Assembly (NCBI GenBank): GCA_016292635.1
Contig: JAEDIC010000001.1
Span: 67,275-131,274, forward strand
Direction: 5' to 3'
DNA: 64,000 nucleotides
From: Clostridia bacterium
GTDB taxonomy: Bacteria; Bacillota; Clostridia; Christensenellales; CAG-138
A program made the translations under genes and the position numbers. Positions 5,047 to 52,258 of this stretch are shown one piece after another. The notes under the pieces were generated by a model, which did not search any database, had not been told where the DNA came from, and was given only the letters and a program-made list of their open reading frames with translations. How positions within the stretch are numbered: the stretch's first letter is position 1; every line of letters begins with the position of its first letter.

Positions 5047-5058
5047 TATCTTTCCTCC

Positions 5059-5940: not shown

Positions 5941-5955
5941 AGCCTACCTCCCCCC

Positions 5956-6873
5956 TCAGTCACGAATCCGCGGATCAACATAGGTATATAGGATATCGAC
6001 AATTAAGTTGACCAGGCTGAATGCCAGCGCTATAACGATAACAGACGCCAGGACAACGGGATTATCTTTTTGCCGTATTGCCGTAATGATCTGGGTACCC
6101 ATGCCCGGCAGGCCGAAAACGGTTTCCGTTACAACGGCGCCGCCAAGACTGGCGCCAAAGGCATTGCCTACCACGGTGATAACGGGTATTATGGCATTTT
6201 TCAGCGCGTGCTTGAAAATAACCCGCTTTTCCGCAGCGCCCTTTGCCCGGGCAGTACGGATAAAGTCCTGCCGCACCACCTCCAGCATACTGGAACGAGT
6301 CATGCGCATAATTGTGGCACAGTTTATGAATCCCAGCGTAACGGATGGAAGTATGAGCCACTTCAGCCCTTCATATCCGCTGGATGGCAGCCAGCCCAGG
6401 TTAAGCGAAAACAGCAGCATAAGCAGCATACCCAGCCAAAATGCGGGAATAGACGCCATCAGCAAAGCAAACACCACCGAAAACGCATCGATGACAGAAT
6501 ACTGCTTTACCGCTGACAGAATACCCACCGGCACACCTATCAACACCGCTATAAGCATAGTAAAGGTGGTGAGCTGCAGCGTCAGCGGGAATCTTAGCTT
6601 GATAATATCCCATACCGGCATACGAAGCTGATATGAATCGCCAAAGTCGCCCTGAACGGCGCCCTTTATGTAGTTAAAAAGCTGCTGGTGATATGGAAGA
6701 TCAAGGCCCAGCTCATGTCTCAGGGCTTCTACCTGCTCTTCCGGCGCGCGATCGCCCAGTATCAGCTTGGCGGGATCTCCAGGAGAAAAATACATGATGG
6801 TGAATACGACAAAAACGATGCCGATCAGCACCGGTATAAGATACACCAGGCGTTTTGAAACATATTTCAGCAA
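5956..6873 (-). CDS. ABC peptide permease (OppB/DppB type).
   Basis: 305 aa, multi-TM, with the loop FIRTARAKGAAEKRVIFKHALKNA. TTG start with a GGAGG RBS. Confidence 0.9.
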   Translation of the reverse strand: MLKYVSKRLVYLIPVLIGIVFVVFTIMYFSPGDPAKLILGDRAPEEQVEALRHELGLDLPYHQQLFNYIKGAVQGDFGDSYQLRMPVWDIIKLRFPLTLQLTTFTMLIAVLIGVPVGILSAVKQYSVIDAFSVVFALLMASIPAFWLGMLLMLLFSLNLGWLPSSGYEGLKWLILPSVTLGFINCATIMRMTRSSMLEVVRQDFIRTARAKGAAEKRVIFKHALKNAIIPVITVVGNAFGASLGGAVVTETVFGLPGMGTQIITAIRQKDNPVVLASVIVIALAFSLVNLIVDILYTYVDPRIRD

Positions 6874-6937
6874 GTTCAGCCCTCCTTTTTTCGCAGTTGC
6901 TTCAAATTATTTTGCCTCTGCCGGTAAAACCGCATTT

Positions 6938-6982
6938 TTTTATAAAAAGGCATGAAGGAGCGCCGGATACGGCACTCCTTCA
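6938..6982 (-). terminator. Intra-operon hairpin plus U-tract after the binding-protein gene (partial terminator/attenuator).
   Basis: Stem TGAAGGAG.GCCG / CGGC.CTCCTTCA with one mismatch and a 4-nt loop. On the minus strand it is followed by TGCCTTTTTATA. Confidence 0.5.
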
Positions 6983-36280: not shown

Positions 36281-37594
36281 GTGAAGACACGAGATGGAAT
36301 CAAAAAATCTTTCTTGTGGGTTTGTTTACTGCTTGTATTGATAGTGGGAATCAATCAAATCCACAAAAAGAATCTGGGGCGTGATATAGATGCCCTGAAT
36401 ATCGATGCTGTGCTTCCATCCGTGAGGTTGATTGCGGCAGGTGAGGCTACCCATGGCAACCGGGAGACTGCTTTGGTATGGAAGGAGCTGCTGATGCGGC
36501 TTGTGGAGGAACATGGTTGCCGGGCTTTTATACTGGAAACCTCCTTTGGAGACGCTGAGAAAATCAACCAATATCTCCTAAATGATTCGGGAACAGCTGA
36601 GGAATGTGTATTCCAGATAGATGCCGGTCCATACCGAACCGAAGAGATGGTGGATTTGCTCCAATGGATTCATGATTACAATCTGCTGGTGGAAGATCAC
36701 GAAAGGATTCGCTTTTATGGGATCGACATACAGCGTAATATAGACAGCAAAGAAGCGCTGCTCGCCTACATACAGCGCGCAGAACCAAAACACGTTTCGG
36801 CATATTATCCTATGCTGGGACAGAACAAGCCCCATGAAAGAGCAGATACGGAGTTATCTGCCGCCGATGTGACCACAGGGATGGAAAACAACAAGAGTCT
36901 TTATATAGAGCAAACTTCCGAACAGGAGTATATGCTGGCAAAGAGGCATGCTGATTGCATCCTAATGACAGAAGATTTGCTGCTTGCTGAAGGCGAAGCC
37001 CAATCCACCCTGCGTGATCGATACATGGCGGAAAATGTGCTATGGATATTGGAGCACGAAGCAGCCTATTATCAAAATTCTCACGCCCTGTTAGGCGCTC
37101 ATAACGGACACATTTTGCGGCAATCCAATTCCCCTCTGGCCTACGAAAAGCCTATGGGCCAATACTTAGGCGAGGCCCTTGGAAGTGATTATTACCCCAT
37201 TGGCCTGGAGACCAGGGAAAACACATTCTGGGCGTGGAAGCGGCGTATCCCCTGGGCATACCATGTTGAACGGAAAGGTTGGCTCATCGATTTGCTGGAC
37301 GACGCTTCCGGACAGGCAACTTTTGTGGATTTTTCCGATTACAATGATACTAACACCACCGCAATTCGAGGACAGGAATGGAATATAACAGGAATTGGCA
37401 GCGTCTACAGGCAGATTCAGAGCCTATATCCGGAATCCTCCGGCTTGCCGGTTCGCCTGGACGCGGCGTATTCCGCAATTCTCTTTTTACCTACAGCGAC
37501 TCCCTCGGCTTTGTTGGCCGGCAATAACATAACAATGGTTTTATTGGTTTCAGTGTTTGTTTTTCTATGCTGGCGAATTATGCGAAAAAAGTGA
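36281..37594 (+). CDS. Erythromycin-esterase-family protein with N- and C-terminal TM anchors.
   Basis: Motifs: AAGEATHGNRE, LGAHNGHI. Hydrophobic N-terminus (FLWVCLLLVLIVGI) and C-terminus (MVLLVSVFVFLCW). Confidence 0.75.
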   Translation: MKTRDGIKKSFLWVCLLLVLIVGINQIHKKNLGRDIDALNIDAVLPSVRLIAAGEATHGNRETALVWKELLMRLVEEHGCRAFILETSFGDAEKINQYLLNDSGTAEECVFQIDAGPYRTEEMVDLLQWIHDYNLLVEDHERIRFYGIDIQRNIDSKEALLAYIQRAEPKHVSAYYPMLGQNKPHERADTELSAADVTTGMENNKSLYIEQTSEQEYMLAKRHADCILMTEDLLLAEGEAQSTLRDRYMAENVLWILEHEAAYYQNSHALLGAHNGHILRQSNSPLAYEKPMGQYLGEALGSDYYPIGLETRENTFWAWKRRIPWAYHVERKGWLIDLLDDASGQATFVDFSDYNDTNTTAIRGQEWNITGIGSVYRQIQSLYPESSGLPVRLDAAYSAILFLPTATPSALLAGNNITMVLLVSVFVFLCWRIMRKK

Positions 37595-37731
37595 CGCTGT
37601 CCAATCAGTAGAAAACTACAAAGATAAACCAGAAGCCGAGAAAACAGCATCTACAATTAAGGGCGTATTTGCAAATGCGATATATCAATCGCTTGTCTCA
37701 GATAAAAGATATGTAATAGGGAGGTAAAACT

Positions 37732-37899
37732 ATGGAAGGCGGTCTTCTGTTAATAGTCTCATCAATAATTAATATTGTTTTGAAGATAGCACTGTTTGTG
37801 GCACTATTCTGCTTGATTATTTATCTTTTGAGAATAGCGCGATGGTTTATTGAACGACACGATGTACCGCCCCTGTTCAATATTAGGCGGAATAAATAA
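37732..37899 (+). CDS. Tiny membrane protein (55 aa). Not in the ORF track.
   Basis: GGAGG 6 nt before ATG 37732. MEGGLLLIVSSIINIVLKIALFVALFCLIIYLLRIARWFIERH. AT-rich context. Confidence 0.45.
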   Translation: MEGGLLLIVSSIINIVLKIALFVALFCLIIYLLRIARWFIERHDVPPLFNIRRNK

Positions 37900-38011
37900 T
37901 TTAGTAAAAGTGAATTTTATTATCCTTTTAATGGTTTCTGAAACAGCGGTTACGCTATAGTCTGTAATATTGTTATACAAAAATATTCTGTATAGATGGA
38001 GCATTACGTAT

Positions 38012-38155
38012 ATGGCTCATTCCTTTAAGATGATTCAAATAATATTCAATTATTTAATTCTGATTTCAACATATACATTATATGTTTTAGCTATTATCGC
38101 ATTAATCCTATTTATTAAATGCATGTTGCGATATTTAAAAACAAATAACCAGTAA
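38012..38155 (+). CDS. Tiny membrane protein (47 aa).
   Basis: GGAG 10 nt before ATG 38012. One TM, then CMLRYLKTNNQ. Confidence 0.4.
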   Translation: MAHSFKMIQIIFNYLILISTYTLYVLAIIALILFIKCMLRYLKTNNQ

Positions 38156-38243
38156 TCGGTAAGCTGCACAAGTTCTACGTTTCTAGCAGATATAAACATT
38201 AGGTGTTTTGACTAGGTGCAAGAGGATAAACTTTAAGGCAAAA

Positions 38244-38335
38244 GCCGGACGCAGGGCGGTGAGCCGCTTCCTTCCTCGTTTTGAAAGTGGGAGAGAAACG
38301 GGCCTTGAGGGGCAGATAATGGCAATTGTGTTTAA
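38244..38335 (+). pseudogene. Internal fragment homologous to the BlaR1-like gene (30061..30155).
   Basis: GRRAVSRFLPRFESGRETGLEGQIMAIVFN compared with GRRAVGHFMPRFEKGYETGLEGQIMAAVLN. The nucleotide alignment is visible by eye. Confidence 0.6.
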
Positions 38336-38373
38336 TTGCTGCAACAAAATATAAAAATTTGGAGGTTTAGTGT

Positions 38374-38574
38374 ATGCAAGGAGATTTGATTAGAATACTA
38401 TTGTACAGCATTGCGATCTTCATGCTTGGCCTCATTGCAATCAACCTTGCTGAGGAATACTTTATCAAATATATGCTTTTTTCAATAATAATGAGCGGGA
38501 CAACGATTATTACATGTATAGGGTGCTTGCGTAGATTGAAAAGTGATAATATCCGTGATAAAAACAGTGATTAG
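38374..38574 (+). CDS. Small two-TM membrane protein (66 aa).
   Basis: GGAGG RBS. Two hydrophobic segments, then CLRRLKSDNIRD, which resembles the tail of the 38012 ORF. Confidence 0.5.
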   Translation: MQGDLIRILLYSIAIFMLGLIAINLAEEYFIKYMLFSIIMSGTTIITCIGCLRRLKSDNIRDKNSD

Positions 38575-38639: not shown

Positions 38640-39211
38640 GTAAACACCAAAATGGCGTAAAATAGAGCAACTATTTATTGGGTGGGAATGCCGGGAAACG
38701 GCATTCCCGCCTTGTGTGCATTCTATCCGGAGCCTGGCGGCATGTCAAGGACAGCCGTAAGGCTGTGCACTTTATCCTTGACAGGATGGCAGGGGCCGGT
38801 TATCCGGGAATCCTGTCTGCAAAGAATATCTCCGGCTGGGAATGGACCGCGCCCCAGTCCTGCCGTCGTCCCGTCCACTTTTTCGTGATGCCAATCATGG
38901 CCAGATGCAGCATTAAGCAGGCTGTCATCCTCTGTCCCATATCTGCTTTTATTTTTCCATATATTTCTTGCCTTCTGTACTTTAGTGCAAATACTATATG
39001 ATATTTGCATCTCCATTTACTGTGTGATAAGCTTTTGATGTCATCTTGCATGACTTAGACCTCCTTTGTTTTGATGTGGTTGGCGGACCTTCATCATTCT
39101 ATCATTGGGGGTCTACTGCTTGAAGCTTTTTATTCCACCAGCATAGCTGGTGGTTGTTTTTCGCTGAAGCTACAAACACTATGTGCACAACATCACTGTT
39201 GTGCACATAGA
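38640..39211 (-). mobile_element. IS200/IS605-family element remnant. Boundaries are approximate.
   Basis: A degraded tnpA flanked by a 10-bp-stem hairpin (38684-38708) and a 9-bp-stem hairpin (39183-39206). There are no terminal inverted repeats, as expected for this family. Confidence 0.5.
38800..39051 (-). pseudogene. tnpA: IS200-type Y1 transposase (tnpA), internally deleted or degraded.
   Basis: The N-terminus SLSHSKWRCKYHIVFALKYRRQEIYGKIKAD is the IS200 TnpA signature. The HUH (xDHxHxL) segment is missing. The ORF ends early at 83 aa, and C-terminal similarity continues past an in-frame TAA. Confidence 0.65.
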
Positions 39212-39328
39212 TGGCGGAGAAGGAGGGATTCGCGCGCCAGTCACCCCAGCCTACTCCCTTAGCAGGGGAGATAAGGGTGGCTGTTTCTCTGGGCAAAATA
39301 AGGCTGTGTATGTAGTACGTATGTAATA
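39183..39328 (-). repeat. Repeat unit A: hairpin, tRNA-Ser 3' fragment, and an arm with two 9-mers.
   Basis: Shares with 45385..45710 the hairpin GTGCACAAC-N6-GTTGTGCAC, the tRNA-derived block, and GTATGTAGT-N2-GTATGTA(A/G)T. Confidence 0.75.
39212..39270 (-). pseudogene. tRNA-Ser(GCU) 3' fragment, decayed.
   Basis: The reverse complement reads CTCCC-CTGCTAA-GGGAG..(variable arm)..GAATCCCTCCTTCTCCGCCA. Relative to the copy at 45587, 6 nt (AACCCT on the plus strand) of the T-arm are deleted. There is no acceptor 5' strand (GGAGAAG) upstream. Confidence 0.7.
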
Positions 39329-39499
39329 GATATCTTTGAAATTTCTACATAGCACATCTTTATGTGCGACTTCATAAATGCAGGCTTGCAAATTATTATA
39401 ATATTCCCTTTATTTCTTATCATCACTCCATCAGTAAAACTCTATTTTATTTCACATCCATCTAAATAACACTATATCATCTTCCTCGTTTTTACCACC

Positions 39500-39533
39500 T
39501 GAGCAATTTTTTGCCGTAAACCAATGCTATACT
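39500..39533 (+). promoter_or_regulatory. Conserved bipartite promoter-like module, copy 1.
   Basis: TGAGCAATTTTTTG-N11-TGCTATACT (extended -10, TGnTATACT), about 50 nt upstream of the PcfJ-like gene. Same spacing as 41787..41820. Confidence 0.45.
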
Positions 39534-39583
39534 GATATTCCGCTTAAAACAGCCGTATTAAAATCTTACCGGAGGACTGATTT

Positions 39584-41200
39584 GTGAGTGATTGCTTTGC
39601 TTTTGAGATAACCGTTTCCGACGGCTTCATCCTGCAGGAAGAATGTCTTAATATGCCTTTGGATGCAGCTGCTCGCCTGCTTAAAACAAAGCGCAGGCGC
39701 AGATACACCTCTGCTCTTAGGGACAATGATACCGCAATGCTTACACGTCACTTTTTCATCTGTCCTCATTGCCGCCGCAGGACTCCTGCTTATCCTCGCT
39801 TTATTATGTTCCGGAAAGACATTCCTTCTGCAGTTACCCGATGCACAGTAACAACTTGGGCGGATCCTCAGCTGTCGGTTTTTGAAAAAGAAAACACCGT
39901 GCTGTGTCTCAATAAGCCTCTGACAGACCAACATTTTTTCTCCTGCCCTCATTGCGGCATTAGCTCATACCCCGCCTCAGAGTCACACCACATAAACATA
40001 AGCAATCGCAGGGACTGTATCACGCTTTCACATACCACCTTCAGCCTGGATACGCTATATGCCATGCTCCCCGATGAGGATTGCGGTTTATCCTTTCTTC
40101 TCCCTGTCACAGAAAGCGCAGTATTCGATTTTTTCTTAGGAAAGGTATTTCTGCGTATCACAGATAACCGCGGCACTCAGCTTTGCAGCCGGGATATCAC
40201 CTCCATTCCCAGCATATGGGGCCGCAGTACACTGTATCGCCTTCTCTGCAATAACTCCCTTGTGCAACGCAGGCTGCGCCGGCTTTTCGCCTGCCATATG
40301 TCCTTCCCCTTTTTGAATTGCGAGCTTACCGCCCTCCACTTTGTTGCAGCCACTCGCTTTCAGGGCTTTTCCCGCAGCTTTTATGATTCCATACCTTATA
40401 CTGTTAAAACAGGGCATCTTGACGAATCTTTTGATTCCGTATCCGCAGCTTTGAAATGCGCAGCAGATATCCCTTCCCTTTATAAAAAATCCAGACTGCC
40501 TCAGATGAAGTCCATTAAGAAATGCTTTTTTGCCAATACCGGCTTTTTCTTCTATCTTTCGGAAGCTGTATTCCTTTGGAATACCATTAAAGACCCCAAT
40601 CTCTTTCGTACTCTGTTGGTGTCGCCCGGAATATATCGGCTTTTTGCCTTTCTGCACCAGTTCCCGGGAACAACGGTTTTCTTCGGTGATTATGCTGAAA
40701 GACATGGTAAAAAGTCCCTGACTGACCTTCTTGTGAACCTCTCGGATACTGTTAAGCAATTTGCAATACAGTATTCCGCTATGAATACTGCTGCCCGAAA
40801 CCATGAACCCTTTCTCTTTGAAAGGCATGATAATATACCTGGATATGTTCTCCCCCTCGCCTACTCGGTTCCGGTACATTCACCTGCCAGGCGATTTATA
40901 CATAATACCTCCATCGACGGCTACTGCTTTGACTGCCTCAGAAGCACAAGGGATTATACCTTCGCAGGTCAAGCACTGAACAACTGTCTGAACGCCTCTT
41001 ATCCCCAGGACAATACAGTAATATGCATAAAAAGGAATTCTGAAATTATAGCAGCCATAGAAGTTAACGGAGATACCGTGCTGCAGGCACGGACCCACGG
41101 CAATGCAGACATAGATAAAAGCCCTGCTATTTACAAAGCTTTTAAAAAATGGATGCGGCACAATTCCCTCCGTATCAGCCTTGAATCGGCCGATGCATAA
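39584..41200 (+). CDS. PcfJ-like protein (conjugative-plasmid-type).
   Basis: GTG start 8 nt after GGAGG. C-terminal block GQALNNCLNASYP..ICIKRNSEIIAAIEVNGDTVLQARTHGN resembles the PcfJ-like domain. CxxC pairs lie near the N-terminus. Confidence 0.5.
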   Translation: MSDCFAFEITVSDGFILQEECLNMPLDAAARLLKTKRRRRYTSALRDNDTAMLTRHFFICPHCRRRTPAYPRFIMFRKDIPSAVTRCTVTTWADPQLSVFEKENTVLCLNKPLTDQHFFSCPHCGISSYPASESHHINISNRRDCITLSHTTFSLDTLYAMLPDEDCGLSFLLPVTESAVFDFFLGKVFLRITDNRGTQLCSRDITSIPSIWGRSTLYRLLCNNSLVQRRLRRLFACHMSFPFLNCELTALHFVAATRFQGFSRSFYDSIPYTVKTGHLDESFDSVSAALKCAADIPSLYKKSRLPQMKSIKKCFFANTGFFFYLSEAVFLWNTIKDPNLFRTLLVSPGIYRLFAFLHQFPGTTVFFGDYAERHGKKSLTDLLVNLSDTVKQFAIQYSAMNTAARNHEPFLFERHDNIPGYVLPLAYSVPVHSPARRFIHNTSIDGYCFDCLRSTRDYTFAGQALNNCLNASYPQDNTVICIKRNSEIIAAIEVNGDTVLQARTHGNADIDKSPAIYKAFKKWMRHNSLRISLESADA

Positions 41201-41274
41201 AACAATTTTTCCGTATGTGCGCCATCCGTATTTATTGATCTCAACGGTATGATTATACCTCAGCCAAAATTTAA

Positions 41275-41301
41275 ACTCCCCCTCGTTAATCGAGGGGGAG
41301 T
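41275..41301. terminator. Bidirectional terminator between convergent genes.
   Basis: ACTCCCCCTCG-TTAAT-CGAGGGGGAGT, an 11-bp stem. The stop codon of the minus-strand ORF lies in the loop. Confidence 0.55.
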
Positions 41302-41741
41302 ATGGTTGACAGGGGGCCGCCGGAGCTTTCCGTGCGCGCCCCTATTTTCCAGTTGTTTTTGTTGAAGGGGCTGCCGTAACCGCTGCAGGTATAATCCCGA
41401 GTCTCGTTATATGGATAGAGATAATCCCTAAAATACCCTCCCACAGTATGCAGGCAGTATTTCGCCTCGTCCTCGGGCCTGAGCGGTTCGTTCAGATACA
41501 CCCGATACACACAGATGTCCTCATCCGGAACAAACCGGTCAGGCAGAGGCTTTACCAGGCATTCCATGAGGTGCTCCCTGCAGTTTTCATCCACCCGATA
41601 TTCCCTCCGAAGCTCACGGCATTCCACCATTGTCTTGCCCTTAAGGCGCACCACCTGGCAGAAAGTATAGGCAGAATACAGCTCGAATGAACTGCTTTTT
41701 ACGAATATATCCCCCACCTGAACATTGTGATTTCTCTCCAT
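41286..41741 (-). CDS. Hypothetical protein.
   Basis: 151 aa with an AAGGAGGG RBS. No family recognised. Confidence 0.55.
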   Translation of the reverse strand: MERNHNVQVGDIFVKSSSFELYSAYTFCQVVRLKGKTMVECRELRREYRVDENCREHLMECLVKPLPDRFVPDEDICVYRVYLNEPLRPEDEAKYCLHTVGGYFRDYLYPYNETRDYTCSGYGSPFNKNNWKIGARTESSGGPLSTILPLD

Positions 41742-41786
41742 AGCACACCCTCCTTTATTTCTGTAATATAGTTATAGCATTATAGG

Positions 41787-41820
41787 TGAGCAATTTTTTG
41801 ACCCCCGCAGTTGCTATGCT
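41787..41820 (+). promoter_or_regulatory. Conserved bipartite promoter-like module, copy 2.
   Basis: TGAGCAATTTTTTG-N11-TGCTATGCT upstream of the WYL gene. It is followed by TTGCCA-18-TATGAT (41822-41851), whose spacer holds CAGGC-N5-GCCTG. Confidence 0.45.
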
Positions 41821-41884
41821 ATTGCCATGGCAGGCGTAATGCCTGTATGATAATATTGATCATATCGGAAAGGATTCTCATAGC

Positions 41885-42892
41885 ATGTCTAATTCCGCTC
41901 CCATCAAGGATAAAGAAGAAAAGAAAATACTGCCCTTTCGCATACTGCAGATACTCAAAGAACACTCGGATGAAAATCACCCCTTGACCTCTTCACAGAT
42001 AATCTCCCGGTTGGATCGCGACTATGGACTCAAGGCCACCCGCAATACCATCCGCAGCAACCTTCATGTGCTCATGGATGCAGGTTATGAAATCAGCACC
42101 TTTGAGGACAACGGCAAAGGCATATATATTGAGGAGGGTGAGCTGCTCCACGAGCAGCTCCGCTGGCTGATTGACAGCGTGCTGAACTGCCGTTATCTTC
42201 CGGAAAACAGGGCGCAGGAACTTATCACCACCCTCAAAAAAATGGGTGGACCTGGCTTCTGCAGCAGCATGGATTACGCCGATGCGTTAAAGCAATGGCC
42301 CCGCCACACTAATCAGGAGTTTTCTTTAAGCCTTGAACTGTTGGAAGAAGCCATTGAAGAAGGCCGCCGTGTCACCTTTAACTACAATCGCATGGACTGC
42401 GACGGCGAGCTCCATCAGTTAGGAAACACCCACCTTGTGCTGCCCATCTGCATATTCCCGGTGAATTATCAGTATTACATGGTAGGATATGACTTTGGAG
42501 CAAATATGCTGCTCCACTACCGTCTGGACAGAATAACCGGGACGAATGTTGCAGAAACGGCCATAGACGATGACAAAAAGCTGAAGCCCCGGGATTTCAA
42601 CGCCGTCCAGTATGCCCGCCAGCACCCTCATATGTACGGCGGAGTGCCCGAACCCATCACCATGAAGATGCCCCGCCGCCTTGCCGGCGCCGTAATGGAC
42701 ACCTTTGGCCCCGCCGCACTCATGCGCCCGCTGGATGAGGAATACATGCAGGTGCGTGTAACAGCAGCGCCTGAGGGCATGCGCTTTTTCGCTCTGCAAT
42801 ACGGTCCAAGCTGCGAGGTGCTGAGCCCCCAAAGCTTGCGTGATATAATTAAACAGGATATAATGGGAATGGTAGAAAAATATTCTGATTAA
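41885..42892 (+). CDS. WYL-domain transcriptional regulator (HTH-WYL-WCX architecture).
   Basis: N-terminal wHTH (FRILQILKEHSDENHPLTSSQI). WYL core VTFNYNR..YYMVGYDFGANMLLHYRLDRITG. Confidence 0.85.
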   Translation: MSNSAPIKDKEEKKILPFRILQILKEHSDENHPLTSSQIISRLDRDYGLKATRNTIRSNLHVLMDAGYEISTFEDNGKGIYIEEGELLHEQLRWLIDSVLNCRYLPENRAQELITTLKKMGGPGFCSSMDYADALKQWPRHTNQEFSLSLELLEEAIEEGRRVTFNYNRMDCDGELHQLGNTHLVLPICIFPVNYQYYMVGYDFGANMLLHYRLDRITGTNVAETAIDDDKKLKPRDFNAVQYARQHPHMYGGVPEPITMKMPRRLAGAVMDTFGPAALMRPLDEEYMQVRVTAAPEGMRFFALQYGPSCEVLSPQSLRDIIKQDIMGMVEKYSD

Positions 42893-42934
42893 GGCGCCAT
42901 AAAACACATCTTTAAAACAAAAGGAGAATTTCAA

Positions 42935-43774
42935 ATGGCAGGTTTTGAGCGTTCGCTTTCGGATGGTCTTATTGCAAAACTTCAAAACGAAAAGATTTTT
43001 ACAGATAAGCTGCTACCAGATATACGTAATGGGAAAGTATTTCCCGCTGTCAGAAATGAAGAAATATCATTTTATTATAAAGGCGGAAGGCTGTTTGCTT
43101 ATGATAAAAACGGGTTTAAAACTCATATAAAATACTGTATAATTCCCGAGTTCCACGACAATTACATTACAGAAACAGAATTAAATAATATCACCATTTC
43201 AACATCATTCTATAATGAGTATGAAGAAATAAAAAAAATATGCGAATTATATAGTGGAGGCGAAGCCAATGCAGTATCTGCCTTATACGAGAACGCCTGT
43301 CTTTCCGATAGCCGAGTTATTTTTCTTGATACAGAGATAGCATTATACACCAATTCAGAAAACGACCGTATCGACTTATTGCTCTATGACATAATTTCCC
43401 GAAAATTGTGCTTCTGTGAAGCAAAGCTTTTTTCCAATCCGGAAATATGGGCTCTTAAATACAAAAAACCGAAAGTATGCAGCCAAATCGACAAGTATGA
43501 TAAAAAAATAAACACTTATTACGATGATATAGTAGCACAATATTCCAATTATATAGGCATCTTAAACAAACTGTTTAGCACAGACCTCCCCGTTCCCACT
43601 TCTCTTCATAAAAAAACAGGATTGCTGATAACCGGCTTTGATAGTTCCCAAAAAGAAAAAATCAAAAACCTTCTTATTGATGATGGTAGTTTAGATGGGA
43701 TTTCCAATTATCGCACCGGCGAACTGAAAAGCAAGCAAATTTCTACACTGTTTAAAAATATTACCAAGGCTTAA
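42935..43774 (+). CDS. Hypothetical protein with a PD-(D/E)XK-like nuclease motif.
   Basis: VIFLDTEIAL..DRIDLLLYDIISRKLCFCEAKLF fits a D..(E)xK core. Visibly AT-rich and Lys/Asn/Ile-rich, unlike its neighbours. Confidence 0.5.
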   Translation: MAGFERSLSDGLIAKLQNEKIFTDKLLPDIRNGKVFPAVRNEEISFYYKGGRLFAYDKNGFKTHIKYCIIPEFHDNYITETELNNITISTSFYNEYEEIKKICELYSGGEANAVSALYENACLSDSRVIFLDTEIALYTNSENDRIDLLLYDIISRKLCFCEAKLFSNPEIWALKYKKPKVCSQIDKYDKKINTYYDDIVAQYSNYIGILNKLFSTDLPVPTSLHKKTGLLITGFDSSQKEKIKNLLIDDGSLDGISNYRTGELKSKQISTLFKNITKA

Positions 43775-43853
43775 ATTACCCACACCATGCCCGACCACAA
43801 ACTTGCGCACCATTCATCTTATACTTATATCACAACAACACAGGAGGTAAATC

Positions 43854-45101
43854 ATGAAGGTTGAAATACTCAGAGGCAAAGAACACATCGGCGGAAATAT
43901 CATAAAGGTGACGGAAGGCGAAACCGCCATACTGCTGGACTGCGGCGCAATGCTGCCCGTCATTGGCGAAGCAAAAGTTGAAGACGTTTTCGACATGGGT
44001 CGAATTGGCAAGGTGGATGCACTTTTCCTCTCCCACCATCATGGGGATCACTCCGGCCTTATGGAAAAGCTGTCTCCTGAGGTGGACCTTTATACCACCG
44101 TCGAGACCGTAACCTTTATGGATAAGCTGGATATGTACATGAACAGACCGCTGCGTACACGTGGAAGGGCGGTTCACAGCCTGTTTGACGGCGAGAGCGT
44201 GACCGTAGGTTCCCTTACAGTCACCCTCTATATTACCGAGCATTCTGCCGAAGGCTCCGCCATGTTCCGTGTGGAGGGCGGCGGCAAAACCCTTCTTTAT
44301 ACCGGAGACTTCAAGCACAGCCTCAACATTCCCCGCGGTGTTGACCTGCTTATTACTGAAGGCACTATGCTCACCAGAGACGGTCAGGCCTATGCCGATG
44401 AGGACGGCGTGGAGATGGCCTTCCGCAGGGTCTTCAGAGAAACCGAGGGCAGGGTATTTGTCCTCACCTCCAGCGCAAACCTGCCCAGAATACGCTCGGT
44501 AATATCCGCAAGAAATCACGACTGTCCGGATGAAATCCGCTATACCAATTATTCATATTCCTCCGGTGATGCTCCCCGCCCCATAATGCAGGATGTATTC
44601 CTCAAGTACATTCTGGAAAACACGGGCCACAAGGAACTTGCCGCACCATATGCATTTATCTGGAACCAGTTCAGCGACAGCCGCAACAAAGCGTATGACC
44701 GCATAGCAAAGCACTACTGCGATACCAATGCCGCTGCAAGCTGCCGCCGCATAAATGACCTTTCCAGAGCAGTGGTATTTATTCGCCCCACCATGGTAGA
44801 TATGCTTGAAAAGCTGATAAACGAGGGCATGGATCTATGTGATGACACACTGGTCTTCTCCATGTGGCGCGGCTATGAGAAGGATCCTAATGTGGCAAGG
44901 CTGCTGACGCTCTTTGACAAGTTTGGTGTACATCCCACATATATCCACACCAGCGGACATGCCGATGCGGCACATATACAAGAATTGATAAACAATGTAA
45001 ACCCCAGAAGGATTGCCTGCATCCACAGCGAAAACTCCGCCATGATAGAAGAAATTGCAGGAGAGATACCCGTAGAAAAGGCCGACGTAATCGAGCTGTA
45101 G
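43854..45101 (+). CDS. MBL-fold metallo-hydrolase of the beta-CASP (RNase J/CPSF-like) type.
   Basis: Motifs: SHHHGDHSG (HxHxDH), TEHS, YTGDF, LITEGT, HTSGHA, CIHSE. Confidence 0.8.
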   Translation: MKVEILRGKEHIGGNIIKVTEGETAILLDCGAMLPVIGEAKVEDVFDMGRIGKVDALFLSHHHGDHSGLMEKLSPEVDLYTTVETVTFMDKLDMYMNRPLRTRGRAVHSLFDGESVTVGSLTVTLYITEHSAEGSAMFRVEGGGKTLLYTGDFKHSLNIPRGVDLLITEGTMLTRDGQAYADEDGVEMAFRRVFRETEGRVFVLTSSANLPRIRSVISARNHDCPDEIRYTNYSYSSGDAPRPIMQDVFLKYILENTGHKELAAPYAFIWNQFSDSRNKAYDRIAKHYCDTNAAASCRRINDLSRAVVFIRPTMVDMLEKLINEGMDLCDDTLVFSMWRGYEKDPNVARLLTLFDKFGVHPTYIHTSGHADAAHIQELINNVNPRRIACIHSENSAMIEEIAGEIPVEKADVIEL

Positions 45102-45133
45102 CGGATTTATATTCGATCCTTAACGGACAAGCC

Positions 45134-45165
45134 AAAGGTCATGCGTAAACAGCATGACCTTTCTT
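45134..45165 (+). terminator. Intrinsic terminator.
   Basis: AAAGGTCATGC-GTAAACA-GCATGACCTTT followed by CTT. Confidence 0.65.
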
Positions 45166-45384
45166 CATTGCAGTTCTTTCTTTATTTTCGGCAGAGAATT
45201 TATTGCCATATTCCTCTGCCCCTGCATGCATTGTCTGCCCAGCCCCCTCTGAATATATGACAATGCTGAACAGAGCCGACGCCTAAAAGAAAACATCTGT
45301 AATGCTGCGGATATCCCATATTGAAACCCGCTAATACAAAATTCATTGAACGTGAAATCCTTCGGTCTTTTCCCAAAACACCAA

Positions 45385-45433
45385 GTGCACAACATTTCTG
45401 TTGTGCACGTAGATGGCGGAGAAGGAGGGATTC
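45385..45433 (-). repeat. Repeat unit B, proximal part: hairpin plus a 20-nt copy of the tRNA-Ser 3' terminus.
   Basis: GTGCACAAC-ATTTCT-GTTGTGCAC, then GTAGA, then TGGCGGAGAAGGAGGGATTC. The same 20-mer recurs at 45587-45606. Confidence 0.75.
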
Positions 45434-45541
45434 CCCCCGGCACTGGGGCAGTGCCGACGCCAGCCCGGGGCGCTGAAAAACCATTCACTGGATGGTTTTT
45501 ACCCGCCACAGGCGGGCCGTTCCCTTCTTATCCCTCCTTCT
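45420..45541. other. A 122-nt multi-hairpin element closed by a 12-bp long-range stem.
   Basis: AGAAGGAGGGAT (45420-45431) pairs with ATCCCTCCTTCT (45530-45541). Internal hairpins lie at 45439-45455, 45476-45500 and 45502-45516. Confidence 0.4.
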
Positions 45542-45554
45542 TTTATGCAGCGCG

Positions 45555-45584
45555 AAAAAGAGACCGCAAATGCGATCTCTTTTT
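45555..45584 (-). terminator. Hairpin directly downstream of the tRNA-Ser fragment.
   Basis: AAAAAGAGA-N12-TCTCTTTTT, with an inner CGC/GCG pairing. It lies 2 nt from the CCA end. Confidence 0.5.
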
Positions 45585-45586
45585 CG

Positions 45587-45651
45587 TGGCGGAGAAGGAG
45601 GGATTCGAACCCTCGCGCCAGTCACCCCAGCCTACTCCCTTAGCAGGGGAG
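45587..45651 (-). pseudogene. tRNA-Ser(GCU) 3' fragment, running from the anticodon stem-loop through CCA.
   Basis: The reverse complement reads CTCCC-CTGCTAA-GGGAG, a long variable arm, GAGGG-TTCGAAT-CCCTC, then CTTCTCC-G-CCA. Upstream sequence lacks a D-arm and the GGAGAAG acceptor strand. Confidence 0.75.
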
Positions 45652-45769
45652 GTAAGGGTGGCTAAATGTCTAGAGAAAATGGGGCTGTGTATGTAGTGGG
45701 TATGTAGTAGGGTTCGCCTTTTTGTCGGGAATCATCATTCCAGCATTTGAGCATGACGCCGAAAGATCA

Positions 45770-48124: not shown

Positions 48125-48307
48125 ATATTGAAACTAAACGAAATAGATTACATACTTACCTAAATATATTGGCGCAGAACAGCTGCCCTCCCTGCCAAAC
48201 ATCATGCCCGATATTCGCCCTATACACCCTTGATGTAAAATGATATACTAAAATTATATATGTAAAGATAAAATTCTATCGAAAATAAAAGCATTTTGGG
48301 GTCTCAT

Positions 48308-51300
48308 ATGCGAGTAAATATTCTGGATTTTGCTGAAAACTATGCCATAAAGCAAATATTTGAGCTTTGTAAATTTAAGCCTGCAACGAATCCCAAGGAT
48401 GATTTGGCAATATCACAATTGGCAGATTATATTGAAAGCCTCAGCCCCTATGTCGAACGTGATGCGGCTCAGATTTCGCTGCTTCAAAGTATCATGATTT
48501 CCATGGACGATAATGGCATGGCAGACTCATACAGAGTAAAGGCATTGCATTCAGCCGTTATGCATTGGGGCATGGGCTCCGCTGCGGATAAAATCACATC
48601 TACTCAGGAATACTCAGCGCTCTATGAAAAGGGATTTATCTATGAAGTGCTGCGTCTCGGGAAGCAGCGATGCCTTAAATTCCAGCATCCGTATTCGGAT
48701 GCTCTCAAGAGCGGCGCGTTGGCAGGTATTAAAGAACTGCTTGCAAAAAATGATATTGTAAAATCAAACAACAAAAATGTATCTGAAGGCATATCAAAAT
48801 CTCATCTTTACAATAAAACCGAGCCTACAGAAAACTCTGCCATGCAGATGCTTTTCAGGAGAATCAACCGCGAATTTCCCGATGCTGCTTACATTGGCGA
48901 TATAAAAATCAACGATGAAGAATACGCCATTCTGAAGCAGTATTTGAAAAAAGCATTGGAAAATCTTGATGGCAATCCTGACGATGCCATGTATGCTGTG
49001 GCTGTGGTACAGGTTGCCATGCGTACATATCGTGAACATGTTTTTTGGGGAAATTTCTTTGCCGAAGCAGATGTTCCGTCAAATGCCTCCCTGCAGGGAA
49101 TTATAGGCAAAAAGTTCTGGGCTATTCTCATAAAGCATAACAAGTTTCATACAGACAGCAAACGCTATATACAGAACATTCTGATGCATTGCTATGTTTC
49201 TGATTATTACGCACCCAAGTATTTTGACTTTTTATACAAGTTTTACAGCATAGACCTGGACAGAGATATATCGAGGCTTGATCAGGAAACGATGAACATC
49301 CTGCTTGACTCGGTATGCTCTGAAGATAATACCGGGCGCCGATATATGCTGGTACAGCATACAAGCCAGGCAGTAGCAGCAAACAGACCCGATGCAGCAG
49401 TTCGTATACGTCGCCACCTTGAGCAAATCGATAAGCTGTTCTGGAACCCGGAATATGAAATCATAGCGGACCACCGGCTGGATTCCCTTATGCAAGATTG
49501 GGCAAGGTCAGCCAACGAGCTGGCGCTGGATGCAAACAGCATTGGAAGAAATCACGGGCGCGGTGCACGAAGGTTCTCTTCCCCTTATATTTTCTTCGAC
49601 AAAGCAAATGCTTCTTTCCAGCTGGTATTGCCGTCCCAGATAGTAAAATGGGGTGGAGAAAGCGACCTGTACTGGGAGATTTCCGGCGCAGAGGAAATCT
49701 GTCTGGAAACTGAACTCACAGAGTCGGTAACGGGCTACAAAGTACTGCAGACAAGCACTCCCATAAATTGGCATTCTGTGCTTGGCAAATTCAGGATCAG
49801 ATTGACTGATAACGGCGGAATCGCTCACAAGACTTTTTACATAACAGAAAGCAACATCAGATTTTTCGATTGCGATGGATATCCCGTAAATGCCAATGCG
49901 CTTAAGACAGAGGAAATCATTGCAGTATCTCAACCCGAAGACATATTGCTGTCCAGCGCTCTTACTGACAGTTATGTGGCGAATGGGCTGCTATTCTCCT
50001 GCTTTGATTTTGAATATGAGGACATATTGCGTCTGCCTGACGGCAAAGCGGTAATAGTGGGTAAAAAAGAAATTCAAAGCGGCCTTGCCGGCAAAGGCTA
50101 TGTGGAAGCGGCTGTATGCACCTATGATGACAACGAGTGCAGGCTATATCGGGAAATGCCCCATCTGGTTCTCAGAATGCAGCCTCAAAAGGCCGCAGGA
50201 ACATGCATAGAAATAAATGGGCAGCGGTTTAAGCTGTTTGATACCGAAACCGTAGAGTTTTCCATAGATGACCGTTCAGGAGAGACAGGATATTACATAA
50301 ATCTGGCATTCTTAGGTGCTCAGAATGGATTATACGAAATAATGGCCGATATCCCCGGGGGTGCTGTACATCGCTGGAAATTTGTGCTGGTCAAAGATTT
50401 TGAGGCTGTATTCGACGGTGCTCCATATGTATTTGAGCCCCGTGGAACAGTAAGCTTTAATGACAGCATGCAGGTAATACCGCTCAGTGCCGCAGCAGAA
50501 CAAGTGCCGGGAACCAATGATTTCAAGTTTGAAATAGAGCGCACCGGCCGCCGGATAGAGTTTGAACTTGCTGCATTGGATAAGCCATGCATTGTGTCGC
50601 TTCCGGTGCCTGCTGTGTTTATAAAGGCAGGGAATGACAATTGGTCAAGCCGCCGTCCGCCCCATATGTGGCACAAAGATTTCCCGGATATTATTGAACT
50701 GTCCGTACCCTATCACAAGGTTTCGCTCAGTATGGAACATCCATCTTCAGATGATGGCGGAAGAAGAATTGAATACGGAAGAAACATGGGCAGCGACAGC
50801 ATTGTTTGCGATGTTCGTCGTTTCAAGTCGTACTTATCCGGCGACGGAAACTTAAGGCAGCTGCGTATGAGCTTTGCAGAAGTAGATACCGATTTGTTTA
50901 ATATACTGATCAGAAGTATAGTTACTTCCTGTGATATAATAGGCAACTTCGAAAATGATTCTATCACTATAAACGCAAATATTATCGGCCAGGCACAGTA
51001 TTGCTTTGATCTGTATCATAACGGAGCGTTGATAGCGGATAAGGCAATGCTTGATAATGGAACTGCAACACTATTCGGCCTGGCAAAGAATGGACGATAT
51101 ACAGTAGAATTATTTGAAGAGGAAGCAGATACCTCCGGCTTTGAAGACGCTTATTATTCCTCCCTCGGCAAATATGAACAGCAGCTGCTCAATCCTTATG
51201 ATATGAGCGACAGGTCCTTCCGCATCATCCAGATAGAGAATAAAGAAAATGGCACTATATATCCGTTGATGTGCAACTTCTACGTGGAGCACCTGAAAAA

Positions 51301-52258
51301 GGTTGATGCAAATATCTATTGTGGAACCATGGTTGCAGAAAAGCGTGATGGAACAATACTTGCCGCATTTCCTATAAATGTTGAGTTTCCGGATCTTAAG
51401 ACTCCCGGCCTTCTTTGGATAAGCTTTGCTGATGAGTATGGTGACAAGACAGAATTCCTTTATGACACCAGAAGAAAAGTAATTCTTAAAGAGGAAAATC
51501 CTGCGCTGCGAAAGCTTGAATGCTATCGCAGATACAGTGTTCTTAATCAAAGTGAAGAAATCTTCCGCGTTGAATTCTGTGATAGAGCAAAGTGCGCAAG
51601 AGAAGATATCCCCAATACTTTGGTGTTTGAGGAAACATCGAATGTATTCAGTTTTGCCAATCAAAGACAATCCCGCGCCTTGCAAGAAAAAAACAACAGA
51701 AGCATTAAGGATATAAGCTGGAAGGGGTTAGACTATGAATTTCTGAAGGCTGCAGGAATTCATAGAATGGGGCAAATAGTCTGTCACGACAGAAATTCAT
51801 TCAAAAGGCTGATTGGAGCAGCGGAAGAAAGCATCGACAGAATTGAACGCACCTTGGCTGCATATGGTTATTCTTTTGCAAAAGCCGAAGCATCTATTGG
51901 CAGCGCAAAAGCATATGCAACATCCTTTGCTTCGAAAGAACCGATTGAGAAAGCTTCTGTCATTTTACCGGCACCTGATGCCTGGGACGAAGTACAAGTT
52001 CTGGAACCATGCAACGATGAGTACAGTACTTCAACTGAAGAAGCAGCTCCAAAAGACACGAGAGATATTAAGGTATCCCATACCATGCTACCGCCCATGA
52101 CATACAACTGCCTTAAAACTGCGGGGCATCTAACTGTTGGCGATGTGCTGGAGCTGTACCTGGTTAAAGGCAAAAAAGGTCTTGAGAATATCCCGCGAAG
52201 TACGGCAGAGATGAGACAGCAGATCATGGATATGCTCAAACACTACGAATTGATATAG
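48308..52258 (+). CDS. Giant orphan protein (about 1316 aa) with two C-terminal RpoA-alphaCTD-like HhH modules. DruH-like by position only.
   Basis: Uninterrupted ORF. ATG 48308 is preferred over TTG 48296. I find no Walker or catalytic motif. C-terminal LDYEFLKAAGIHRMGQIV and TYNCLKTAGHLTVGDVLEL..GLENIPRSTAEMRQQI resemble SYNCLKRAGINTVQEL..NLGRKSLEEV. Confidence 0.7.
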   Translation: MRVNILDFAENYAIKQIFELCKFKPATNPKDDLAISQLADYIESLSPYVERDAAQISLLQSIMISMDDNGMADSYRVKALHSAVMHWGMGSAADKITSTQEYSALYEKGFIYEVLRLGKQRCLKFQHPYSDALKSGALAGIKELLAKNDIVKSNNKNVSEGISKSHLYNKTEPTENSAMQMLFRRINREFPDAAYIGDIKINDEEYAILKQYLKKALENLDGNPDDAMYAVAVVQVAMRTYREHVFWGNFFAEADVPSNASLQGIIGKKFWAILIKHNKFHTDSKRYIQNILMHCYVSDYYAPKYFDFLYKFYSIDLDRDISRLDQETMNILLDSVCSEDNTGRRYMLVQHTSQAVAANRPDAAVRIRRHLEQIDKLFWNPEYEIIADHRLDSLMQDWARSANELALDANSIGRNHGRGARRFSSPYIFFDKANASFQLVLPSQIVKWGGESDLYWEISGAEEICLETELTESVTGYKVLQTSTPINWHSVLGKFRIRLTDNGGIAHKTFYITESNIRFFDCDGYPVNANALKTEEIIAVSQPEDILLSSALTDSYVANGLLFSCFDFEYEDILRLPDGKAVIVGKKEIQSGLAGKGYVEAAVCTYDDNECRLYREMPHLVLRMQPQKAAGTCIEINGQRFKLFDTETVEFSIDDRSGETGYYINLAFLGAQNGLYEIMADIPGGAVHRWKFVLVKDFEAVFDGAPYVFEPRGTVSFNDSMQVIPLSAAAEQVPGTNDFKFEIERTGRRIEFELAALDKPCIVSLPVPAVFIKAGNDNWSSRRPPHMWHKDFPDIIELSVPYHKVSLSMEHPSSDDGGRRIEYGRNMGSDSIVCDVRRFKSYLSGDGNLRQLRMSFAEVDTDLFNILIRSIVTSCDIIGNFENDSITINANIIGQAQYCFDLYHNGALIADKAMLDNGTATLFGLAKNGRYTVELFEEEADTSGFEDAYYSSLGKYEQQLLNPYDMSDRSFRIIQIENKENGTIYPLMCNFYVEHLKKVDANIYCGTMVAEKRDGTILAAFPINVEFPDLKTPGLLWISFADEYGDKTEFLYDTRRKVILKEENPALRKLECYRRYSVLNQSEEIFRVEFCDRAKCAREDIPNTLVFEETSNVFSFANQRQSRALQEKNNRSIKDISWKGLDYEFLKAAGIHRMGQIVCHDRNSFKRLIGAAEESIDRIERTLAAYGYSFAKAEASIGSAKAYATSFASKEPIEKASVILPAPDAWDEVQVLEPCNDEYSTSTEEAAPKDTRDIKVSHTMLPPMTYNCLKTAGHLTVGDVLELYLVKGKKGLENIPRSTAEMRQQIMDMLKHYELI

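Follow-up and report, generated by a model that had tools for sequence, protein, structure and literature searches.

A three-gene cassette that is best read as an unnamed, WYL-controlled two-nuclease module of defence type lies in the genome of a Clostridia bacterium (GTDB lineage Bacteria; Bacillota; Clostridia; Christensenellales; CAG-138). The stretch that was analysed, hereafter called the window, comprises 64,000 nucleotides and corresponds to positions 67,275 to 131,274 of contig JAEDIC010000001.1 (NCBI GenBank assembly GCA_016292635.1, forward strand). Gene 1 (41885-42892, 335 aa) encodes a WYL-WCX regulator recognized by Pfam and PADLOC models. It is followed by gene 2 (42935-43774, 279 aa), a member of a PD-(D/E)XK-type nuclease family assigned from conserved residues and an AlphaFold2 model, and by gene 3 (43854-45101, 415 aa), a beta-CASP metallo-beta-lactamase (MBL) nuclease assigned from Pfam matches, conserved residues and a model. 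All three open reading frames (ORFs) are on the plus strand and are separated by gaps of 42 and 79 nt, in agreement with a first-pass annotation that had been made from the bare sequence.

The two nuclease genes travel together across many phyla. A scan of one genome per species with a 14-sequence gene 2 alignment identified 64 loci, all in metagenome-assembled genomes, from phyla that include Bacillota, Bacteroidota, Planctomycetota, Desulfobacterota, Ignavibacteria, Fibrobacterota, Spirochaetota, Synergistota, Patescibacteria and Omnitrophota. Homologues of gene 2 are distributed patchily over these many phyla, at 35-48% identity. A gene 3 homologue is present at 44 of the 64 loci, which is the same as 44 of the 52 loci that have at least 1.4 kb of sequence on both flanks, and the pairing recurs in six of seven metagenome contexts. 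At 38 loci the two genes are adjacent (less than 400 nt apart) and on the same strand, with gene 2 preceding the MBL gene in 26 and following it in 12. Beyond the Clostridial relatives of gene 3 described below, the nearest MBL genes whose context is known are likewise linked to gene 2. The adjacency is far beyond chance.

Moreover, pairwise protein distances among gene 2 homologues are correlated with those among their gene 3 partners (r = 0.64 for 29 pairs), a value reached by none of 2,000 Mantel permutations. The preservation of adjacency despite permuted gene order, together with this correlated divergence, provides a strong argument for a functional unit, and genes 2 and 3 very probably constitute a functionally linked nuclease pair. 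Co-conservation of the two genes, on which the first-pass annotation had staked its proposal of a nuclease pair, is thus borne out.

Gene 2 differs in composition from the genes on either side of it. As had been noticed at the outset, it is AT-rich, with a GC content of 0.346 compared with 0.512 for gene 1 and 0.513 for gene 3, and the corresponding values at third codon positions are 0.33, 0.61 and 0.59. This difference of 17 GC points is what would be expected if genes 1-3 were unrelated island cargo that had come to be adjacent by coincidence, with gene 2 as a recent and possibly decaying insertion. The existence of close relatives of genes 1 and 3 without gene 2 fits the same explanation, as does a ratio of nonsynonymous to synonymous substitution rates (dN/dS) for gene 2 of 0.54 relative to a sister locus (L083), compared with 0.10-0.15 for its three neighbours. 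However, coincidence does not account for an arrangement that recurs in 38 distant genomes in both orders and with correlated divergence, and the identities of 23-48% among these loci rule out the repeated sampling of one mobile element. Gene 2 is also intact, retains every family-invariant residue and has a dN/dS below 1, and the trio is collinear in three sister contigs. We therefore consider coincidental adjacency most improbable.

The assignment of gene 2 to the PD-(D/E)XK superfamily was initially proposed from the segments DRIDLLLYD and CFCEAKLF. Both are present, and the D147, E162 and K164 residues that they contribute are invariant among 25 homologues extending down to 35% identity, as are E110, D132, E134, the alanine within E162-A-K164, Q184 and Y188. 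The family motif set can be written D...ExK...QxxxY, and its QxxxY element is typical of RecB/Cas4-like nucleases. In an AlphaFold2 model (predicted local distance difference test score, pLDDT, 93.2; predicted template modelling score 0.90), the protein is divided into a beta-rich N-terminal domain, a nuclease core spanning residues ~96-215 and a small C-terminal domain. The core is modelled as a helix (109-120), three strands (128-135; 146-152, carrying D147; and 157-165, carrying E162 and K164) and a second helix (180-194, carrying Q184 and Y188). This predicted succession matches the canonical alpha-beta-beta-beta-alpha layout of PD-(D/E)XK enzymes and places the catalytic residues on the second and third strands. 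The nuclease fold that had been proposed for gene 2 is upheld by invariant catalytic residues on a canonical topology at a pLDDT of 93, and the structural matches, while weak, are of PD-(D/E)XK type.

Searches of Pfam, NCBIfam, PADLOC and PHROGs gave no match to gene 2, and PDB sequences gave none whether the single protein or a family profile was used as the query. Foldseek searches with the model yielded nothing at E < 1e-3 in PDB or BFVD. Most of the top weak PDB matches are nevertheless PD-(D/E)XK proteins (SfsA, the Shedu nuclease domain, MunI, SduA and Mus81), the BFVD list also contains several RecB-family, Cas4-family and exonuclease VIII entries, and some family members show sub-threshold matches to PDDEXK_9 and HSDR_N_2 over the core. 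Because neither the sequence searches nor Foldseek gave a significant match, we have not filed gene 2 under Shedu or any other named family. The family to which it belongs is large. An exhaustive profile search assigns 1,380 representative clusters to it at E <= 1e-3, or 919 when the threshold is E <= 1e-10 (approximately 900-1,400 clusters at 50% identity); a word-indexed search retrieved 96 relatives. None was found in IMG/VR viral contigs.

Two further candidates for relatives of the gene 2 family were rejected. One family member (P0314) is a fusion of REase-ARP and gene 2, and profile comparison with its fused REase-ARP domain reveals no relation between the two. The same comparison gave no relation to a 244-aa gene that stands beside an MBL gene in locus L081. 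In addition, two loci carry two gene 2 paralogues beside a single beta-CASP gene. These are in tandem in L009 (283 and 322 aa, at 5133-5984 and 6001-6969) and are located at 1828-2178 and 4183-5007 in L068.

Gene 3 can be classified more firmly. It matches the Pfam families Lactamase_B_2 (5.5e-13) and RMMBL (4.1e-6), and all six motifs listed in the first-pass annotation (HHHGDH, TEHS, YTGDF, LITEGT, SGHA and IHSE) are present, with invariant catalytic residues. Specifically, H61, H63, D65, H66, H130, D152, E169, H369 and H391 are invariant among 24 homologues extending down to 26% identity, and they span all of the MBL motifs, including HxHxDH, as well as beta-CASP motifs A, B and C. In Foldseek searches, its AlphaFold2 model (pLDDT 91.5) is most similar to RNase J (5a0t; E 2.5e-23, template modelling score, TM, 0.71) and to EF2904 (2az4; TM 0.74/0.73), and also to CPSF73, IntS11 and archaeal aCPSF1, with E-values of 1e-20 to 1e-23 and TM values of 0.62-0.74 overall. 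As modelled, gene 3 is an MBL fold with an inserted beta-CASP domain of the RNase J/EF2904 type. Invariant motifs, model and Foldseek results agree with the original designation of gene 3 as a beta-CASP MBL nuclease.

Assignment to a named beta-CASP or MBL family failed in each case tried. Scores against the RNase J models are 51.5 bits where 400 is required (TIGR00649) and 49.6 where 820 is required (NF047419), and only residues 3-220 align. The ligase-associated exonuclease model (TIGR04122) gives 18.6 bits against a cutoff of 325, and no ligase or Lhr family match was found in the ORFs scanned near the cassette. An Apyc1-type cyclic-nucleotide phosphodiesterase can also be set aside, given a score of 19.9 bits against 400 for NF041851 and the presence of the beta-CASP insert; precomputed Apyc1 matches in the metagenome contexts are only "faint". 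Finally, gene 3 reaches 31.1 bits with the Cas14 model, for which the cutoff is 800.

Since the nearest structural relatives of gene 3, such as RNase J and CPSF73, are RNA enzymes, RNA appears at least as likely a substrate of the modelled protein as DNA. This raises the prospect of an RNA-directed module, in which the RNase J-like enzyme, possibly together with the PD-(D/E)XK protein, would cut transcripts, tRNA or rRNA, with an effect that would be growth-arresting, toxin-like or one of accessory RNA turnover. Besides the structural matches, the RMMBL "RNA-specificity" motif is present at the C terminus of gene 3 and the residue at motif C is an invariant histidine. According to a distinction reportedly drawn by Callebaut et al. 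in 2002, histidine at this position marks the RNA-acting branch of the beta-CASP proteins and valine the Artemis/SNM1 branch. On the other hand, gene 3 falls far below the RNase J thresholds and lacks the RNase J C-terminal domain, and PD-(D/E)XK enzymes with a RecB/Cas4-type QxxxY motif are mostly DNases. A beta-CASP RNase does have a precedent in defence in Cas14 of type VII CRISPR (PMC12669027). The substrate cannot be read from sequence, and an RNA-directed activity overlaps with the defence-type module that we favour without excluding it. As a separate explanation, we judge it unlikely.

In L008, the beta-CASP gene beside gene 2 is fused to DUF6508 (4389-5999), and a free-standing DUF6508 gene occurs in L079 (199-615) at a distance of ~5 kb from a lone gene 3 relative. 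Truncated genes resembling DNA polymerase III alpha recurrently adjoin the beta-CASP gene, in L064 (6208-7845), L067 (3785-5422) and L081 (3180-5231), where two encode 545-aa proteins containing part of the NTPase/palm domain and one encodes a 683-aa protein with PHP and pol3-alpha domains.

Gene 1 was originally called a helix-turn-helix (HTH)-WYL regulator. The WYL part of this description is confirmed by Pfam (PF13280, 1.5e-8, 34.9 bits against a cutoff of 21.8, residues 150-219), and a WCX domain can be added (PF25583, 2.4e-5, 25.0 bits against a cutoff of 23.9, residues 282-329). PADLOC WYL models match at 8e-26 and 7e-14. For the HTH part, no Pfam HTH family matches at E <= 0.1, although the second of the PADLOC models (PDLC01457) aligns from residue 19 and there is a weak NCBIfam match over residues 20-67. 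An N-terminal HTH is therefore probable. There are also weak Cas3c matches, and no PDB chain matches the sequence at E <= 0.01. The protein resembles BrxR and CapW at the level of predicted domain architecture only. It is 87% identical to its counterparts in the sister contigs (L082-L084) and 51-53% identical to the WYL genes of two other loci (L077 and L085).

The intergenic region ahead of gene 1 (41742-41884, plus strand) contains a promoter-like site. Its -35-like hexamer TTGCCA (41822-41827) and -10-like hexamer TATGAT (41846-41851) are separated by 18 nt and agree at 10 of 12 positions in the scan. The spacer holds the 5-bp palindrome CAGGC-N5-GCCTG (41831-41845). In the sister contigs the two hexamers are kept and the palindrome is replaced by AGCC-N4-GGCT (at about 1550-1565 in L083), a swap that may represent a compensatory change in an operator or a hairpin. 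A repeat search for an operator found no inverted repeat of 8 nt or longer. We infer from these sequences that the region is a candidate operator.

Control of the pair by a WYL protein recurs in lineages that are far apart, although only a minority of loci show it. With an iterated WYL profile, a WYL gene was found within 5 kb at six of 44 pair loci (~14%) and at none of the 20 loci that lack an MBL gene. In a Bacteroidia genome (L054) and a deltaproteobacterial genome (L053) the WYL gene is directly upstream on the same strand, as in the window, and WYL or WCX genes also stand beside the pair in L005, L008 and L011. Thus, the first-pass proposal of a WYL-controlled nuclease pair holds with respect to the pairing of genes 2 and 3, but the WYL gene is not a constant part of the module. 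Neighbour censuses with Pfam (n = 182) and PADLOC (n = 107) revealed no constant third partner gene. An AAA+ ATPase recurs in WYL-containing loci and is not part of the cassette in the window.

A WYL gene beside nucleases could also indicate a module for processing or repairing damaged DNA. The regulator would then act as an activator that senses damage, as PafBC and DriD do, and the nucleases would act on ends, crosslinks or stalled intermediates of the host chromosome. The DNA-damage response has established WYL regulators, among them SiwR (PMC10693628) and DriD (PMC12041258), and the eukaryotic beta-CASP proteins Apollo and Artemis are among the sequence matches of gene 3. Moreover, at a distance of 3-4 kb from the pair in L008, a WYL gene adjoins genes for an ATP-dependent DNA ligase and for a Tyr-DNA phosphodiesterase, and an IMS/Y-family polymerase gene and genes resembling DNA polymerase III alpha occur among the neighbours. 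Nevertheless, the pair is patchy and horizontally mobile and does not behave as a lineage-stable repair set, no LexA/SOS or repair partner recurs in the neighbour censuses, and the cassette in the window lies in a tRNA-fragment-bounded island beside a Druantia-like gene. Gene 3 is structurally closest to RNA enzymes and not to SNM1/Artemis, its motif C residue is histidine and not valine, and its score against the ligase-associated exonuclease model is far short of the cutoff. A dedicated repair role is accordingly quite unlikely.

Comparison with characterized systems shows that each named family fails at least one of the defining features tested. WYL-regulated defence operons are exemplified by those of BrxR, in BREX and other islands, and of CapW, in CBASS (PMC9122601, PMC9122588, PMC11662680). 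The cassette is similar to them in that a WYL-WCX regulator heads a short, effector-type operon in an island with a Druantia-like gene. It differs in that no WYL regulator of solved structure matches gene 1 in sequence, the operon carries a nuclease pair that has no name, a WYL gene accompanies this pair in a small minority of genomes and no long inverted-repeat operator was found.

Shedu (SduA, DUF4263) shares with gene 2 the placement of a PD-(D/E)XK core after a separate N-terminal domain, and its nuclease domain ranks among the best of the weak Foldseek matches, with probabilities of 0.57 for 8ti9 and 0.47 for 8ps5. By contrast, gene 2 has no DUF4263 or PADLOC Shedu match at E <= 0.1 and TM values do not exceed 0.30/0.41. 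In addition, published work describes Shedu as consisting of one gene (bioRxiv 10.1101/2023.08.10.552793), while gene 2 mostly comes with a beta-CASP partner. REase-ARP/GmrSD systems are linked to the pair by REase-ARP genes upstream of it in three loci and by the REase-ARP-gene 2 fusion, but gene 2 lacks profile similarity to REase-ARP and no methyltransferase is a constant partner.

For gene 3, the full MBL and beta-CASP architecture, the complete set of catalytic motifs and TM values of 0.71-0.74 are shared with RNase J and EF2904. However, sequence identity to these proteins is only 17-20%, and at 415 aa gene 3 is shorter than RNase J (~555 aa) and has no C-terminal dimerization domain. 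It is also island-borne and paired with a PD-(D/E)XK gene, in contrast to a housekeeping RNase. Cas14 of type VII CRISPR-Cas is a case in which a beta-CASP nuclease was recruited as an immune effector (PMC12669027), and its model has a weak match to the N-terminal part of gene 3. Unlike Cas14, gene 3 lacks a Cas10-like C-terminal domain and falls far below the model cutoff, and its neighbours (WYL, gene 2, the divergent gene orf151 and a PcfJ-like gene) are not cas genes; a CRISPR array was not searched for.

Genes of defence type are found near the pair in other genomes. In addition to REase-ARP, they include GmrSD/Schlafen, SIR2, reverse transcriptase, NACHT/nSTAND, IetA-like AAA+, PbeA, PDC-S01 and PDC-S11. 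From this context, and from that of the cassette itself, we infer a role in defence against phages or other mobile elements, a proposition for which we consider the chances evenly balanced. In such a role, the WYL protein would keep expression low until a nucleic-acid signal lifts repression. Both CapW and DriD sense single-stranded DNA (ssDNA) (PMC11662680, PMC12041258). The PD-(D/E)XK enzyme would make endonucleolytic cuts that leave 5′-phosphate ends, and the beta-CASP enzyme would then degrade the cut strands in the 5′ to 3′ direction, acting on RNA, ssDNA or both. Gene 3 would, by analogy with RNase J, prefer 5′-phosphate ends. As an outcome, the invading element would be destroyed or the infected cell arrested. 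We offer this division of labour between an endonuclease and an exonuclease tentatively, and regard it as doubtful in its details.

A number of observations weigh against a two-nuclease defence module. Eight of the 52 well-flanked loci hold gene 2 without an MBL gene, relatives of gene 3 at 41-63% identity occur without gene 2, and no protein that fuses gene 2 to an MBL domain was seen in the hit lists. Support for the fold of gene 2 is weak by score, the best Foldseek E-values being 0.054 in PDB and 0.002 in BFVD. The dN/dS of 0.54, which comes from a single pair of sequences, could reflect relaxed constraint or composition bias instead of an arms race. Among the 107 close neighbours, defence genes are scattered and do not dominate, and some surroundings are housekeeping-like, such as ClpS and Leu/Phe transferase in L002 and pyrF and SurA in L006. 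All homologues are from uncultured genomes. Lastly, the PADLOC-DB v2.0.0 models give no family at E <= 0.1 for genes 2 and 3, consistent with the inability of the first-pass annotation to name a system, and a literature search that left most subscription journals outside its scope returned no paper describing the pair.

With no named system in PADLOC v2 and no describing paper in the literature searched, the pair is uncharacterized. Candidate defence modules are common, and the contextual evidence for defence is moderate here. If the pair does serve in immunity, it would be a new effector combination, joining a PD-(D/E)XK family that has no Pfam entry to an RNase J-like beta-CASP nuclease; in the literature searched, no immune effector of the beta-CASP type was found other than Cas14 of type VII CRISPR. 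If its role is instead in repair or RNA turnover, it would establish a new bacterial function for an orphan beta-CASP clade related to EF2904, whose structure was solved in 2005 and is still deposited as that of a protein of unknown function. Because the gene 2 family is large, spread over many phyla and unannotated, establishing what one member does would serve to annotate a great number of genes. With just three genes, the locus is also a convenient system for studying how WYL regulators gate nucleases, and the apparent exchange of partners beside a WYL/beta-CASP scaffold (see below) is a route into the modular evolution of defence islands.

The history of the cassette can be traced in part from close relatives. 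The sister contigs L082-L084 carry a collinear block consisting of orf152 on the minus strand, the WYL gene, gene 2 and the MBL gene, with 85.7% nucleotide identity over positions 41269-45104 of the window. Protein identities in this block are 87% for WYL, 74% for gene 2 and 91% for MBL. In the window the first member of the block is orf151 (41286-41741, minus strand), a divergently oriented gene of 151 aa that is 85% identical in L083 and L084, has a dN/dS of 0.15 and has no Pfam, PADLOC or PHROG match. By tblastn (E <= 1e-5) it was found in L082-L084 only and is absent from L001-L081; it belongs to the conserved 3.8-kb block and not to the wider module.

A PcfJ-like gene lies upstream of the cassette in the window, whereas in the sister contigs it follows the beta-CASP gene. 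The flanking blocks of the island have thus been shuffled around the four genes, which marks these four as the mobile unit. The PcfJ-like protein has 538 aa (39584-41200, plus strand) with a weak PcfJ-like C terminus (E 0.0048), and its homologues in L082 (3960-5603) and L083 (5065-6708) are 62% identical.

At 43 of 43 loci, the GC content of the gene 2 homologue is below that of the MBL gene next to it, the mean difference being 5.4 points. The gap in the window is 17 points, which suggests that gene 2 was inserted later into an older WYL/beta-CASP island in this lineage. More distant Clostridial relatives (L077/L078 and L085-L087), which include the closest relatives of gene 3 outside the sister loci, have no gene 2. 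Their WYL genes share 51-64% identity with gene 1, and their beta-CASP genes share 41-63% with gene 3. They carry instead an AAA/AAA_lid_6 ATPase (661-671 aa) and a gene of ~300 aa unrelated to gene 2. The latter encodes 299 aa in L077 and 321 aa in L085. Neither of these two matches a PDB sequence, and BLAST detects no similarity between them. The trio in the window is therefore one of several arrangements, and the position of the partner beside WYL and beta-CASP genes appears to be exchangeable. The trio may have been assembled when gene 2 entered an older WYL/beta-CASP island within tRNA-Ser-associated mobile DNA beside a Druantia-like system.

These arrangements can be extended to a broader conjecture, to which we assign a small chance of being correct. 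The pair could represent an unnamed and widespread two-nuclease immune system in which the WYL and beta-CASP genes of Clostridial islands form the constant scaffold and unrelated partners of ~300 aa are swapped in, the partners known so far being gene 2 in the window, the 299-aa gene of L077 and the 321-aa gene of L085. Sensor or nicking subunits that can replace one another would then each recruit an RNase J-like effector, in a loose parallel to the way in which type VII CRISPR recruits Cas14.

The cassette is contained in an island segment of ~6.3 kb that is bounded by direct repeats. The left copy (39174-39329) consists of a small hairpin followed by a 3′ fragment of tRNA-Ser(GCT), and the right copies (45376-45710) comprise a partial copy at 45376-45433 and a fuller one at 45587-45710. 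Three repeat families (D1-D3) are 87-100% identical between left and right. As read from the sequence, the repeats contain ~77 nt of the 3′ part of tRNA-Ser(GCT), with the hairpin ahead of the fragment. The tRNA scars noted in the first-pass annotation as boundaries of this DNA are therefore real as direct repeats. No intact tRNA or other RNA family was detected in the window with ARAGORN and Rfam, and megablast of the 6.3-kb segment (39300-45600) against phage and plasmid records gave no matches.

A terminator had also been placed at 45134, on the 3′ side of gene 3. A stable hairpin is indeed present (45134-45165, plus strand), with an 11-bp stem, a 7-nt loop, a folding energy of -16.9 (centroid) to -18.3 kcal/mol and a z-score of -3.7 relative to shuffled sequences. 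Its function as a terminator is only partly confirmed because the T tail is poor (CTTCATT), the consensus terminator scan does not call it and homology to the sister loci ends at 45104, ahead of the hairpin, which is thus outside the block shared with L083. It may be a weak intrinsic terminator.

Three kilobases downstream of the cassette is a gene for a DruE-like helicase of 1,553 aa (52269-56930, plus strand; PADLOC DruE1, 9e-174) with DEAD, Helicase_C and MZB domains. Given the DruE-like neighbourhood and the tRNA-fragment repeats, the surroundings look as if island cargo has accumulated at a tRNA-Ser site. The ORF immediately upstream of the DruE-like gene (48296-52258, plus strand) encodes 1,320 aa and has no Pfam, PADLOC or PHROG match. 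Together the two may constitute a type III-like Druantia system, with the 1,320-aa protein as an unrecognized DruH-type partner. Three genes follow the DruE-like gene on the plus strand, at 56956-61931. Their products are a 665-aa LRR_5 protein, a 464-aa DUF2201 protein of VWA-like/metallopeptidase type and a 503-aa MoxR-like AAA ATPase that weakly matches IetA and PDC-S73, and they may form another gene set of a conflict system.

On the other side of the cassette, a short ORF (38800-39051, minus strand) is located immediately to the left of the left tRNA-fragment repeat. Its N terminus, SKWRCKYHIVFALKYRR, resembles the start of an IS200/IS605 Y1 transposase, and the putative gene appears truncated. 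Still further upstream of the island, on the plus strand, are a gene for a 1,369-aa BlaR1-type M56 peptidase fused to NlpC/P60 (27694-31803) and an erythromycin-esterase family gene (36281-37594). Between these genes and the island, at ~37600-38400, is a region of low GC content (0.30-0.35) with small hydrophobic ORFs.

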